DNA of 64,000 nt, taken from the NCBI RefSeq assembly GCF_053078305.1, contig NZ_CP166879.1; one strand, given 5' to 3'. Both the position numbers and the translations under genes were made by a program. Below the pieces are notes generated by a model. The model was not told the origin of the DNA, ran no database searches, and saw only the letters and a program-made list of their open reading frames with translations. Shown here in pieces: positions 1 to 55,534 of this stretch; position 1 is the first letter of the stretch; every line of letters starts with the position of its first letter.

Positions 1-2325
1 CTGATTGGCGGTGTGCCCGCGATCTTTCAGCCATGCGTTCAGGCAGACGCGGGTTGCCCGCAGTGCTTCACCCTCAGGCCAGCCGGTGATACCCAGACGG
101 GTTGCCAGTTCACCCGCCATCGCCACCAGTGCAAAGCGATTCACAGCCCGGCCCACCTGGTTGCCTGCATCTTTCGGAGTCAGGGCGGCAGCATATTCCT
201 TCATCAGCGATTTTGCCTGTGCCGTTAGTCCGTTAAGATCAGCGGTCAGTGCTTTCAGCCACTCCCGGAACGGCGAACCGTAGTAGCAGGACGTGGCCCA
301 TTCAAGATGCTCTGCCAGAGCCTTGCCGCTGTCGAAGCCGTGCAGCTCCTCAAAAACGCCAAACTTCCCGGAATCGCTGGGGATCTGGATCATCCTGACT
401 TCCATCCCGGCAAAAGTACGCTCACCGGCCTTTGCCGCATGTTCGGTCAGAGATAACTCGCCAGTTGAAAAGAACAACAGGCGCCACTGCTTACGGGTAC
501 GCAGCTCACCGTCCGTACCGGCACGACCCTTGCCCTGACCGTTTGCCAGCATGTAGGCGATACTGCCTGCCTCGCGTCCGTCAACTTCCCGGATCTCATC
601 AAGCATCATGGCGGCATCGTTGCGGCGGCTGGCGCATCCCTCCAGCGCGTTGCCGGTGGCCCGCCATGTCTGCCAGTAGTCAGGCCCGCCGCAGACGGAG
701 GTTGCCGCTTTCATGGTGGTGGTCTTACCGTCTGTCGATTCCCCTTTGAGGTGGTAGCCGCCGCCGTCCATACCAACCAGCCGTAACAGTGGTGCAGCAA
801 AGGCCAGGCTGACAGCAAATGCCACGCGGGAGTTGCCGGTACAGTAGCGGGATACGTTCTCCCGCCATTCCTCTGTTGTACCCGACACGCGGAAATCACG
901 CCCCTGCACGGAAGTGGTCTGGAGAATGACACCCTCTGCACCTTCACCGCTGACCTCATCCTGCAGGACGTAAACCTGACCATGCCAGCCAGTACGGCTG
1001 ACGCAGGTCACGCGGCGTTCCGGTTTACACAGTGAGATATATTCCATCAGGCGTGCGCGTGCCTCACCGGTGGTGCTGATATAAGACAGCCCGTTAACCA
1101 GCAGTACCCGGCGCAGTTCCTCACCACTGCCGCTCAGCATTTCCATCGGCATCGCCCAGCGGCGACGCTCACCCCATGTATCTTCCCATTCCAGCAGTCG
1201 TCCGAAGTTACCGCCATCGGCATCGCAGGTGATTGCCGTAACGCGCAGCGGGCTGCATATTTTGACGTTCTGGATCTCCGTCTCACCGTTGCGCTGTACC
1301 TGCTTTTCATACCAGAGATATTCCTGGGTAAGACGGAACCCGTGCGGCAGTTGCGTGCGGCCTTCCCCGCACAGTACCAGACCGTTGCGAAAGACTTCAC
1401 GGGCACGGGTAATACCGTGCTCCCGATGAAAGTCATTCCAGTCAGCCTTAATCTCTCCTGGTGGCAGCGTCATCCAGCCGCCAACAGCTTTTGCCGCCCG
1501 TTCAGCAAAGGCTCTGCCGGGATTCTCCCCCCCGTCCTGAAAATCGTTATCACCGGCGATGATAATTTTTACCTCAGGCCAGCGTGCCCGCAGCGACTGC
1601 GCCACATTGGGCAGGTTGCCCGCAGATATGGCAGCCACTACGCATCCGGCAGTGAGCTGGCTTACCGTCAGCGCCGTAGCGTAACCTTCGGTAATCACCA
1701 CCTGTACCGGTGGTTCAGACGGTAACGGGCTGAGCGACACAAACGCGCCTTTCATCGTGCTGCCGGGCAGTATGCTTTTTTCACCCGTCGGGGCGATAAG
1801 CTGTGCACCGGTCACGGCTCCGGTGTTGGTCGTGAGTGGTAACAGCAGAGAACCGGCAGGAAAATCCTTACCGCTGATATGCTGCACGCTTCCGGTCAGA
1901 GAGGCTGGGTATCCGGCGAACCCTTTTCCTGTCAGATAGGCGCTTTCTCCCGTGTGGCTCTCTTTCATCAGCGCCGCCACGGTAAGACCCATGTCGCGTT
2001 TAGGGGCTTTTTGTCTGGCAGGCTTAACAGGCAGTTCCTGCACATCCGGCACATTAAGCATCTGCGCCACCTCCTGCGCAGCCTTTCTGACGCTGTAACC
2101 GGTTACGAGCTTAACCAGATCCAGACCGTCACCATTGCCACACTGGCTGCAGATCCACGTCCCGCGCCCGTCAAGGTCATCAAGGCGAAAACGATCCTTG
2201 CCCCCACATTTCGGGCAGGGACCGTGCCTGCCGTTTTCAGGTACATCAATACGCAGCATCTGCAGAATAACGGGCCATTTCCCCCGCGCGGCGGCTGAAA
2301 TCTGCGTAACCGTCTGTATTGTCAT
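1..2325 (-). CDS. P4 alpha-like DNA primase-helicase (zinc-ribbon, Toprim and P-loop NTPase regions); 3' end runs off the window
   Basis: Hand translation of the minus strand from ATG at 2325 stays open to position 1 (about 775 codons). N-terminus has CPKCGG...CSQCG zinc-ribbon spacing, an internal IIAGDNDF Toprim-like acidic motif and a GESTDGKTT P-loop. Absent from the ORF track because it leaves the window. Start overlaps the upstream stop as ATGA. Confidence 0.8.
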   Translation of the reverse strand, partial: MTIQTVTQISAAARGKWPVILQMLRIDVPENGRHGPCPKCGGKDRFRLDDLDGRGTWICSQCGNGDGLDLVKLVTGYSVRKAAQEVAQMLNVPDVQELPVKPARQKAPKRDMGLTVAALMKESHTGESAYLTGKGFAGYPASLTGSVQHISGKDFPAGSLLLPLTTNTGAVTGAQLIAPTGEKSILPGSTMKGAFVSLSPLPSEPPVQVVITEGYATALTVSQLTAGCVVAAISAGNLPNVAQSLRARWPEVKIIIAGDNDFQDGGENPGRAFAERAAKAVGGWMTLPPGEIKADWNDFHREHGITRAREVFRNGLVLCGEGRTQLPHGFRLTQEYLWYEKQVQRNGETEIQNVKICSPLRVTAITCDADGGNFGRLLEWEDTWGERRRWAMPMEMLSGSGEELRRVLLVNGLSYISTTGEARARLMEYISLCKPERRVTCVSRTGWHGQVYVLQDEVSGEGAEGVILQTTSVQGRDFRVSGTTEEWRENVSRYCTGNSRVAFAVSLAFAAPLLRLVGMDGGGYHLKGESTDGKTTTMKAATSVCGGPDYWQTWRATGNALEGCASRRNDAAMMLDEIREVDGREAGSIAYMLANGQGKGRAGTDGELRTRKQWRLLFFSTGELSLTEHAAKAGERTFAGMEVRMIQIPSDSGKFGVFEELHGFDSGKALAEHLEWATSCYYGSPFREWLKALTADLNGLTAQAKSLMKEYAAALTPKDAGNQVGRAVNRFALVAMAGELATRLGITGWPEGEALRATRVCLNAWLKDRGHTANQ

Positions 2326-2705
2326 ACTTCCCCCTGATACAACGTCACACCGGTACTGCAGAAGTCATCAAAGGCCGCCGGAAGCGTGCGGTACATCTCC
2401 GCCATCACTTCACAGCCGCGCGCGGTCAGTACCGGCGGCGCGGTCAGCAGTGACGGCTCCAGCATGTCAGTCAGCAGTGCCAGCGCGGCAGCGGCGCCCT
2501 GTGCTTCGCCGTACTCGTTAATCAGTGCGCACTCGATATGCAGCGCAATGGCCATTTCAATACGCTCCACCGTCAGGCTGTGCGGACCATACTGATCACT
2601 GCCAGTTTCGTTCAGCATTTTCTGCCGCCATGCTGAAGCAATAGCCCGTCGGTAAAGCGCGGTGGTCATTTCTGCCGGGAAAATGGAAACCTGCGGCTGG
2701 TTCAT
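2322..2705 (-). CDS. hypothetical protein (127 aa), island operon member
   Basis: ORF with GGAGGTG Shine-Dalgarno immediately upstream of ATG at 2705; stop overlaps the primase ATG (ATGA coupling). Confidence 0.6.
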   Translation of the reverse strand: MNQPQVSIFPAEMTTALYRRAIASAWRQKMLNETGSDQYGPHSLTVERIEMAIALHIECALINEYGEAQGAAAALALLTDMLEPSLLTAPPVLTARGCEVMAEMYRTLPAAFDDFCSTGVTLYQGEV

Positions 2706-2986
2706 CTGGCACCTCCTTCAATCAGTGCGCAGCTGTGTGCAATATCCGTCAAATCTGCCCGCAGGTACTCCATCAGCGCGGCGACACCAGGCGCACAGCC
2801 TGCGTCCAGTGCTCCGGCCTGAGACGGGTATTCAGAAAAGAGAAGCTGGAGCATGTCGCAGGCATTTCTTGCGCGGATCAGCTTTCCGAAACCGTCCTCT
2901 GACAACCCATAGGCAAAAGCACCGGTATTGTGTTTTTCAGGCAAAGTGTGGCCCTGAGCACCGTTGTGCCCGTTTGAAATATTCAT
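2702..2986 (-). CDS. hypothetical protein (94 aa), island operon member
   Basis: ORF with GGAG Shine-Dalgarno upstream of ATG at 2986; stop overlaps the next gene start (2702-2705). Confidence 0.55.
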   Translation of the reverse strand: MNISNGHNGAQGHTLPEKHNTGAFAYGLSEDGFGKLIRARNACDMLQLLFSEYPSQAGALDAGCAPGVAALMEYLRADLTDIAHSCALIEGGAR

Positions 2987-3017
2987 CGTGAATTACTCCG
3001 TTTTCAGCGGTATTTTG

Positions 3018-3377
3018 TCAGAGAAACTTTGAATAGTGACCGTCGTCAGGCTCAGCAGAACGCCGTATGGTACGCTCCCGCCAGCGGATAAATAGCACAG
3101 ACGGATGCAGTGTCAGCGGGCCGGAACCACTACTGCCTGCAGGAGCTGGTGCAGGCTTAAAGAGCGGTACATCAAACAGGCGCGTATACCGCTGTTCAAA
3201 CCATGCCAGAGGGCAGGAAGAAAGCTGGTTGTCGCTGTCATGACGTATCAGCACTTCACAGCTGAATTCAGGATTAACCAGCGCCACAGAGGGCGAGGCT
3301 TCTATTAATCGGATAATCGTGACCGTCCAGCCACGTTCATGCCGCCAGCGTTCGCCGGGGTGCGGATAATTACGCAT
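3018..3377 (-). CDS. hypothetical protein (about 119 aa), island operon member
   Basis: Track ORF 3018..3407 begins on a non-ATG codon; an in-frame ATG at 3377 is preceded by GGAGGTGA, so the shorter start is preferred. Confidence 0.5.
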   Translation of the reverse strand: MRNYPHPGERWRHERGWTVTIIRLIEASPSVALVNPEFSCEVLIRHDSDNQLSSCPLAWFEQRYTRLFDVPLFKPAPAPAGSSGSGPLTLHPSVLFIRWRERTIRRSAEPDDGHYSKFL

Positions 3378-53466: not shown

Positions 53467-53775
53467 AGGGTTGTCCTCGTCGGAGTAATTATTATTGGTG
53501 AAAAGATGTTCGCGAAAAAACTATAGACAATTCGTTATGTAACGGATTGCGTTACATCACACTTCAAAAAAGTAAATAAAACGTTAATCACAAGTTTGTA
53601 ATCGCTTTCATCTCACTATGAAAAATGCGGCTACGGTTATGGATTTTCCTGCTCTGCATACCGTCTTAAAACTGGCGAAAAAGGAAAATGAAGACGAAAA
53701 CAAGCGAAGACATTCGGCGCGAGTTGGCTATAATACTCGGCACTTGTTTGCCACATATTTTTAAAGGAAACAGAC

Positions 53776-54306
53776 ATGAGCTTACTCAACGTCCCTGCGG
53801 GTAAAGATCTGCCGGAAGACATCTACGTTGTTATTGAGATCCCGGCTAACGCAGATCCGATCAAATACGAAATCGACAAAGAGAGCGGCGCACTGTTCGT
53901 TGACCGCTTCATGTCCACCGCGATGTTCTATCCGTGCAACTACGGTTACATCAACCACACCCTGTCTCTGGACGGTGACCCGGTTGACGTACTGGTCCCG
54001 ACTCCGTACCCGCTGCAGCCGGGTTCTGTGATCCGTTGCCGTCCGGTTGGCGTTCTGAAAATGACCGACGAAGCCGGTGAAGATGCGAAACTGATTGCTG
54101 TTCCGCACAGCAAGCTGAGCAAAGAATACGATCACATTAAAGACGTTAACGATCTGCCAGAGCTGCTGAAAGCGCAGATCGCTCACTTCTTCGAGCACTA
54201 CAAAGACCTCGAAAAAGGCAAGTGGGTGAAAGTTGAAGGTTGGGAAAACGCAGAAGCCGCTAAAGCTGAAATCGTTGCCTCCTTCGAGCGCGCCAAGAAT
54301 AAATAA
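53776..54306 (+). CDS. ppa: inorganic pyrophosphatase
   Basis: 176 aa. Confidence 0.97.
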
Positions 54307-54322
54307 GTTCTTCTGGCGCAAT

Positions 54323-54362
54323 AACCCTGAACGCCGGGCTTCGGTTAGTAAGGGTTTTTTTA
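54323..54362 (+). terminator. rho-independent terminator after ppa
   Basis: aaccct...agggtt stem followed by a 7-T run. Confidence 0.75.
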
Positions 54363-54385
54363 TGCCCGCGATAAATAAACACACC

Positions 54386-54736
54386 TTATTCCACCACCGC
54401 CTGCAAGCGTAATAACGCCTCTTCCACCACCTCATCCGCAGCCAGACCAATACGCTTTGCCAGCCGGGCGCGTAGATCCATCATCCGCACCTGATTAACC
54501 AGCACCACGCCGTGCACATCGCCTTCTTCGCAATGTAAAGGAACGCTAAATCCGGCATAACGGGCAAAATTTCCACCCTGCGTAATGGGGGCCACCAGCG
54601 TCATTCCCAGTTGATTAAAGGCTTGAACGGAGAGCACAAGCGCAGGTCGACCAGCACCTTGCTGTTCATGGCTGCTTGCTGGATCAAAGCCAACCAGCAC
54701 AATGTCTCCCCGTTCAAATTCACTTTTCTTTACCAT
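54386..54736 (-). CDS. chpB: MazF-family endoribonuclease toxin
   Basis: 116 aa; start overlaps chpS stop. Confidence 0.93.
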   Translation of the reverse strand: MVKKSEFERGDIVLVGFDPASSHEQQGAGRPALVLSVQAFNQLGMTLVAPITQGGNFARYAGFSVPLHCEEGDVHGVVLVNQVRMMDLRARLAKRIGLAADEVVEEALLRLQAVVE

Positions 54737-54981
54737 ATTTCGTCACCCGCAGGGGTGGATTTACCCCAGACATCCTGCTCGCTAAGTTCCGCGGCGTTCA
54801 TGTCACACTGTGCCAGCAGTTCATCAAGCGAGTAGCGCCTGGAGATGGGTGTCAGAATCAGTTGGTTGTTGCTCACCTGCGCTTCCACGCTCTGCCCCGG
54901 CTGTAAGTTAAGTTCTTTCATTACGATATTGGGAATGACCATACCTGCACTGTTCCCCCATCTTTTTATGGTAATACGCAT
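54730..54981 (-). CDS. chpS: antitoxin ChpS (MazE family)
   Basis: 83 aa from MRITIKRWGNSAGMVIP; ATG at 54981 with GGAGGTG upstream. Confidence 0.92.
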   Translation of the reverse strand: MRITIKRWGNSAGMVIPNIVMKELNLQPGQSVEAQVSNNQLILTPISRRYSLDELLAQCDMNAAELSEQDVWGKSTPAGDEIW

Positions 54982-54994
54982 CTGCACCTCCTTA

Positions 54995-55013
54995 AGTTAT
55001 ACAAAGTATAACT
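54995..55013. promoter_or_regulatory. perfect 8-bp inverted repeat (AGTTATAC-aaa-GTATAACT) upstream of chpS; candidate autoregulatory operator
   Basis: Palindrome read directly about 14 bp upstream of the chpS start codon. Confidence 0.5.
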
Positions 55014-55192
55014 CACGGTGCTACAGGAAACGTTTTACCCCTGCGCATTTGTGAATGCCAGCAGAGTTTTTTATGCGTTAATAGATATGGAAAGCGGCTC
55101 GGAGAGAAAAGCAAAAGGTGAGGGAATTACAAAACAGAATGCGAGTCGTCTCGCAAAAAACAACGCCACCCGAAGGTGGCGTATGCATAGGG

Positions 55193-55534
55193 TTACTTAT
55201 CCCTGTCTAACCAGTCGCCGCTTTCAATTAGCTTTAATCCATCGACGGGTCGTTGATAAACGTACATCCATGCACTCCCGTACGGCGTCTGAATCAACTG
55301 GCGCGCGTATTCACCGCCCCTGGTGCGCAAGGCATCAAGTTCGGCCAGCGTGGCGTTGTCAATACGATAAACTTCACCGTGTACCGTTCCGTTCCCCGGA
55401 ACTGCGCCTGGATAGTGGCCCAGGCTATACAACTGGTAGTTATCGATACTGAAATCGCCCAGTAACTGGGCATTGGTCATCCAGTGACTGTTGCCTTGTT
55501 TGTGGCGTAAACTGCCGTAGACAAATATTCGCAT
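55193..55534 (-). CDS. ytfP: gamma-glutamylcyclotransferase-family protein
   Basis: 113 aa with YGSL motif. Confidence 0.9.
   Translation of the reverse strand: MRIFVYGSLRHKQGNSHWMTNAQLLGDFSIDNYQLYSLGHYPGAVPGNGTVHGEVYRIDNATLAELDALRTRGGEYARQLIQTPYGSAWMYVYQRPVDGLKLIESGDWLDRDK

Follow-up and report, generated by a model that had tools for sequence, protein, structure and literature searches.

The closest described relative of the operon analysed here is parD of plasmid R1, whose antitoxin Kis was studied by Monti et al. 2007 (PMC1865072) with hydroxyl-radical footprints, gel shifts and native mass spectrometry. Two 18-bp elements of parD are bound and protected by Kis, both as a dimer and in complex with Kid (PMC1865072). 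Region I, the stronger of the two, is an 18-bp perfect palindrome, GTTATATTTAAATATAAC, the left half of which overlaps the −10 hexamer, and region II (GTTATATTTTTATTAAAC) is imperfect, lies 33 bp upstream of region I and acts cooperatively (PMC1865072). The chpS-chpB pair is likewise an already known, indeed long-known, toxin-antitoxin system of E. coli, and cleavage at ACY by the K-12 toxin ChpBK is reported in reviews (PMC5408214). In the accessible full-text literature we found no published experimental chpSB operator, promoter, transcription start or ChpS footprint, and no chpS entry in the text of the supplementary transcription-start tables (Cappable-seq, SMRT-Cappable-seq, Kim 2012).

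In the stretch of 64,000 nucleotides analysed in this study (the window), positions 53776-55534 carry, in this order, ppa (plus strand), chpB, chpS and ytfP (all minus strand), and tamB (minus strand) follows. The features of this region to which we refer are as follows.

54386-54736, minus strand: chpB, 116-aa PemK/MazF-fold endoribonuclease toxin (ORF list, PF02452, NCBIfam ChpB equivalog, RefSeq-annotated locus 99.9% identical)

54730-54981, minus strand: chpS, 83-aa AbrB/MazE-type antitoxin (PF04014, NCBIfam ChpS equivalog, RefSeq annotation)

54986-54991, minus strand: Shine-Dalgarno sequence GGAGGT of chpS (GGAGG at 54987-54991), 4-5 nt from the ATG (sequence read)

54995-55013, no strand: perfect 8-3-8 palindrome, putative operator for ChpS (ChpS-ChpB) (sequence read, parD half-sites, conservation)

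55005-55010, minus strand: TATACT, candidate sigma-70 −10 hexamer, in the promoter-distal (left) arm of the palindrome

54982-55026, no strand: extended quasi-palindrome around the core (inverted-repeat search; 21-nt arms, 16/21 complementary)

55182-55163 and 55155-55140, minus strand: two tandem terminator-like hairpins after ytfP (terminator scan)

The names chpS and chpB, assigned in an earlier sequence-only reading of this DNA, proved correct. ChpS scored 44.7 bits against PF04014 (cutoff 24.7) and 196.5 bits against the NCBIfam ChpS equivalog (cutoff 101; profile positions 1-83 of 83). For ChpB the scores were 87.8 bits with PF02452 (cutoff 23.1) and 225.8 bits with the NCBIfam ChpB equivalog (cutoff 129). 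Over 951 bp (54300-55250) the DNA shares 99.9% identity with E. coli chromosomes whose RefSeq annotation names ppa, chpB, chpS and ytfP. The ChpB proteins of K-12 and the window share 98% identity and differ at two residues (G22S, H89R). The program-made list of open reading frames starts chpS at a GTG located two codons before the ATG (54981-54979); we adopted the ATG, since both RefSeq and the NCBIfam model of 83 aa agree with this codon. The two genes lie on the same strand, antitoxin gene first, and overlap by 7 nt, an arrangement which suggests that translation of chpB is coupled to that of chpS.

Judged by gene order, toxin fold and antitoxin domain, all as predicted from sequence, chpSB is a type II toxin-antitoxin module of the MazEF/PemIK family, and the N-terminal part of ChpS is assigned to the AbrB/MazE swapped-hairpin DNA-binding domains. 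The two proteins had also been described as paralogues of MazE and MazF; their place in the MazEF superfamily was upheld, with the refinement that ChpB is closer to Kid/PemK than to MazF. Among solved chains, those nearest to ChpB were Kid (1m1f; E=1.3e-20) and MazF (E=6e-9), and those nearest to ChpS were of MazE (1mvf/1ub4; E about 1e-6); no solved structure of ChpS or ChpB itself was present among the matches to known structures. The identity between ChpB and PemK is 43%, and that between ChpS and PemI 37%.

A perfect palindrome directly upstream of chpS had been claimed from the letters alone, and it is indeed present there. On the window strand it consists of AGTTATAC (54995-55002), aaa (55003-55005) and GTATAACT (55006-55013), which in the orientation of the gene reads AGTTATAC-TTT-GTATAACT; the next outer pair (A54994/C55014) is a mismatch. 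Positions 54996-55012 match exactly the 17-bp core GTTATA-N5-TATAAC. The leader of chpS, in gene orientation, is ...CACCGTG AGTTATAC TTT GTATAACT TAA GGAGGT GCAG ATG, so that the palindrome is located upstream of the ribosome-binding site, its end lying 3 nt from GGAGG (GGAGGT 4 nt) and 13 nt from the chpS ATG. GGAGG is kept at the same position in most relatives.

The palindrome alone is not statistically exceptional. The 64-kb window contains 22 perfect inverted repeats (arms of at least 8, loop of 0-6) versus 8.8 ± 3.2 in first-order Markov shuffles, i.e. about nine matches are expected per 64 kb, and the chance of finding one such palindrome in a given 60-nt leader is approx. 0.8%. Because the palindrome is not rare by itself, any argument for its function must rest on its position and conservation.

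Two other inverted repeats were observed in the vicinity. The spacer upstream of ppa contains, at 53537-53557, a perfect 8-5-8 palindrome, ATGTAACG-GATTG-CGTTACAT, which we take to resemble an operator of the LacI/GalR family; by synteny with the record NZ_AP023207.1 this should be the divergent ytfQ-ppa spacer, ytfQ not being annotated in the window. In the interval 54323-54362, between the convergent genes ppa and chpB, a hairpin (AACCCT...AGGGTT) has a run of T behind it on the plus strand and, in the minus-strand reading, a run of A in front of it. It resembles a bidirectional terminator used by both genes, although the simple scan gave no call for it.

In an alignment of the pemI and chpS leaders anchored on the Shine-Dalgarno sequence, GTTATA, TATAAC(T)T, the GGAGGTG block and the ATG are all in register, and because of this we regard the palindrome of chpS as the counterpart of parD region I. 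Regions I and II of parD were both recovered upstream of pemI on an IncF plasmid. Several traits are common to chpS and parD/pem (R1/R100): (i) inverted GTTATA/TATAAC half-sites placed directly upstream of the Shine-Dalgarno sequence, (ii) a left half-site which overlaps a −10-like hexamer (TATATT, the −10, in parD; TATACT, a candidate −10, in chpS), and (iii) an AbrB/MazE-type antitoxin combined with a toxin of the Kid/PemK fold.

The two operators are nevertheless not the same. The core of the chpS site is 17 bp long (N5), as opposed to 18 bp (N6) in parD, and its dyad axis passes through a base pair; the N6 pattern gave no match at the chpS site, and the centre measures 5 bp in chpS and in all of its orthologues. 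In contrast to parD, chpS lacks the TG of an extended −10 (AGT versus TGT), its −35 hexamer in Escherichia is very poor (2/6), and a search of the ytfP-chpS spacer at up to two mismatches revealed no second site similar to region II. Finally, binding has been demonstrated for Kis, whereas the ChpS site is known from sequence comparison. Given the spacing shorter by 1 bp and the lack of region II, the binding geometry and cooperativity of parD are not simply transferable to chpS.

The chromosomal PemI-like modules of the MYTTRLKKVGGS... clade of Enterobacterales (for example in Salmonella arizonae, Citrobacter and Pantoea) carry a comparable site, GATGTTATATTAAAATATAATATC, which ends 15 nt before the ATG; they differ from chpS in having the N6 spacing, a right half-site TATAAT instead of TATAAC, and the TG of an extended −10. 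The other described relative, mazEF (chpA), shares with chpSB the protein superfamily, the operon layout, the logic of autorepression via an AbrB-type antitoxin domain and, in ChpS and MazE, the KRWGNS loop, but its leader is different. The K-12 mazE leader has TATCTACA-type repeats (GTATCTACAATGTAGAT ... GTATCTACATATGATAG), and GTTATA-N5-TATAAC was not matched there even at three mismatches; TATCTACA-type repeats are in turn absent from the chpS leader. A MazE-type operator for chpS was rejected on these grounds, and by its sequence the putative chpS operator is of the Kis/PemI type, not of the MazE type. MazE-like relatives with the motif WGNSAAVRLP (loci L014, L016 and L028) have TCTACA motifs instead.

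A relaxed scan for −10 hexamers (at least 4/6 matches to TATAAT, with A2 and T6 required) revealed that TATACT is the only such hexamer on the chpS strand between 55165 and 54979. At a distance of 16-17 nt it is preceded by ATGACA in Trabulsiella, ATGACT in Kluyvera and TTGAAA in Leminorella (4-5/6 matches to the −35 consensus), and by TAGACA at the same distance in two more distant relatives. The simple promoter scan called no sigma-70 promoter on the chpS strand. With a predicted transcription start near A54998, the operator would span from about −15 to +4, a layout as in parD. The two terminator-like hairpins after ytfP would shield chpS from upstream transcription, and given their presence chpS needs a promoter of its own.

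The conservation of the site was surveyed in the loci returned by a genome scan with the ChpS/PemI alignment (75 loci, one genome per species). The start codon was located and the 90 nt upstream were taken for 68 of these, which together with the window gave 69 antitoxin loci. With no more than one mismatch, GTTATA-N5/6-TATAAC occurs in 58 of the 69, its end lying 12-20 nt ahead of the start codon; among shuffled upstream regions the frequency was 0.2% at one mismatch, and none carried the motif at zero mismatches. The carriers are genomes or metagenome bins of Enterobacterales, Rhizobium, Aquaspirillum, Comamonadaceae and Legionellales. This family-wide footprint rules out that the palindrome arose purely by chance.

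The ChpS clade proper comprises Escherichia spp., Trabulsiella, Kluyvera and Leminorella (ChpS identity 54-98%). In the chpS orthologues of these four genera AGTTATACTTTGT[A/C]TAA is kept and the 17-bp core is invariant, and the sequence upstream of this block is unalignable outside Escherichia. The spacing is N5 in all motif-bearing loci of the WGNS/FGNS type (the ChpS clade and locus L019) and N6 in all those of the VGGS type (the PemI/Kis clade); since each group is essentially one clade, this split is a clade-level character and not a statistical association. A different arrangement of a similar half-site was observed in Paraglaciecola sp., in which two direct copies of AGTTATAACAWTGT, rather than one inverted repeat, precede a ChpS-like gene.

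Of 5426 complete E. coli genomes, 3097 possess chpSB. In 2819 of the 3097 the 49-bp segment 54982-55030 shows 100% identity, K-12 MG1655 being identical to the window over the operator segment, and another 277 fall into the 95-99% identity band (one or two base differences in the segment). In both variants sampled from this band (KOL-1 and ES4) CGTTTCC is changed to CGTTGCC at window position 55028 (T on the minus strand). This T-to-G substitution lies 15 nt upstream of the palindrome and creates TTGCCT, which is only 14 nt from the −10 hexamer.

The ppa-ytfP locus of about 2100 of the 5426 complete genomes is without chpSB. In E. coli Z503 (L001, 608-986, compared with window 54379-55030) this locus is not empty: a decayed remnant of approx. 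130 bp, matching the middle of chpB at 72% identity (E=2e-13), lies there between the conserved terminator side of ppa and the spacer next to ytfP. From about 55031, the −35 position of the predicted chpS promoter, onwards the sequence is again homologous to the window. Because Z503 holds a decayed chpB remnant and not an empty site, the chpSB locus appears to exist as two old haplotypes, intact and decayed, the decayed one being exemplified by Z503. We also noted that the 'plasmid' pMTY18781-2 (NZ_AP023207.1; 94 kb, non-mobilizable) carries tamB-ytfP-chpS-chpB-ppa-ytfQ in chromosomal order; this record is probably a chromosomal segment, either episomal or mis-assigned in the assembly.

The palindrome is the centre of a longer, imperfect repeat, the arms of which (54982-55002 and 55006-55026) are 76% complementary; the right arm takes in the Shine-Dalgarno sequence and the left arm CACC. 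The probability of at least 8 of 13 outer matches is 0.006. One genome of the 3097, that of E. coli O111:H2 08-3342, is the only one in the 80-90% identity band for the 49-bp segment. Here, through five clustered substitutions, the left flank has become an exact reverse complement of the right one, giving CTGCACCTCCTTAAGTTATAC-TTT-GTATAACTTAAGGAGGTGCAG with perfect 21-bp arms. A change of this kind is characteristic of the correction of quasi-palindromes by template switching, and because such a conversion is seen in this strain, the symmetry of the flanks has a mutational explanation.

The comparisons with parD and across relatives lead us to conclude that the 19-bp palindrome upstream of the chpS ribosome-binding site is very probably the operator of chpSB. 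The earlier proposal of a 'likely autoregulatory operator' thus gains weight, as the half-sites are identical to those of the Kis-footprinted region I of parD, the motif leaves a cross-genus footprint, and it overlaps the sole −10-like hexamer; homology supports this reading well, and binding is what it predicts. In the mechanism that we consider most likely, a ChpS dimer would recognise the inverted GTTATA and TATAAC half-sites via its AbrB/MazE-fold N-terminal domain. As the left half-site would at once serve as −10 hexamer (TATACT) and the right half would cover the predicted start, ChpS bound there would keep RNA polymerase out and thereby repress the operon. Alternatively, the repressor may be the ChpS-ChpB complex, with ChpB as a co-repressor that tunes binding as Kid does for Kis. 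Degradation of the labile antitoxin would then lift the repression. We infer the binding of ChpS, the co-repressor role of ChpB and any dependence on the toxin:antitoxin ratio by analogy with Kis-Kid.

Three other explanations of the palindrome were weighed against its use as a ChpS operator. It may function as RNA, in that a hairpin formed by the extended repeat pairs GGAGG with the upstream CACC and either curbs translation of chpS or stabilises the 5′ end of the transcript, which requires a transcription start upstream of 55026. The 61-nt leader folds with −19.8 kcal/mol (z = −3.6; 1 of 200 shuffles was as good) and places the Shine-Dalgarno sequence within the stem, the extended arms are complementary at 16 of 21 positions, three outer pairs are changed on both sides across seven orthologues, and Trabulsiella and Kluyvera each have an anti-Shine-Dalgarno-like left flank of their own. 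However, any palindrome folds well, symmetric protein binding and template-switch mutation also mimic covariation, and the sample in which the covariation was seen consists of seven sequences, four of them nearly identical. Furthermore, the only −10-like hexamer is located inside the left arm, so that a transcript is expected to begin in the right arm and would be unable to fold into the stem, and two terminators separate ytfP from chpS. The core half-sites do not co-vary and are invariant across very distant taxa, which fits recognition by a protein, the anti-Shine-Dalgarno pairing is absent from the leaders of the PemI clade, and an Rfam search of 54250-55250 gave no match. We therefore consider a role of the palindrome as an RNA hairpin to be unlikely.

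If the site is read by a protein, its main binder might not be ChpS but, for example, a plasmid-borne PemI/Kis, or a global protein, AbrB-like or nucleoid-associated, that is drawn to the AT-rich dyad. The identity of the half-sites to those that Kis recognises, and the occurrence of PemI-type genes on thousands of enterobacterial plasmids, speak for such a binder; the spacing, which is 1 bp off the Kis site in every member of the ChpS clade, speaks against it. Moreover, the motif accompanies chpS in differing genomic surroundings and occurs also in plasmid-free strains (K-12), which makes the cognate antitoxin the simplest reader and another main binder very unlikely. Least probable of all, and hardly to be entertained, is that the palindrome has no function and is a chance or template-switch inverted repeat that merely happens to be located in the chpS leader. 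Such palindromes are indeed frequent (about nine per 64 kb, as calculated above), and template switching has been active at this very site in the one E. coli genome with perfect 21-bp arms. Neither would account for the fact that 58 of 69 relatives, versus 0.2% of shuffles, have the half-sites equally far from the start codon, or for the retention of these half-sites where the flanks are unalignable, and the homologous site of parD has been footprinted (PMC1865072).

An operator bound by ChpS, the reading that we prefer, belongs to a type already known from parD; the chpS site was in this sense predictable, and it constitutes a well-supported prediction rather than a discovery. What is mildly new is the N5 spacing of the ChpS clade, the single-site architecture, and a predicted specificity of the Kis type rather than the MazE type. 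The importance of the finding beyond annotation is small. For annotation, it provides a precise predicted operator and −10 hexamer for chpSB of E. coli, including K-12, in which the sequence is identical, and a family-wide motif (GTTATA-N5/6-TATAAC, shortly before the ribosome-binding site) by which relatives can be annotated. It is conceivable, although we put it forward only tentatively, that the half-sites standing 1 bp closer together in the ChpS clade either insulate chpSB from the PemI/Kis proteins of IncF plasmids, which are very common, or are tolerated by these proteins and thereby permit transcriptional cross-regulation between plasmid and chromosome. Either outcome, if true, would provide a concrete and testable example of the divergence of operators between paralogous toxin-antitoxin systems.
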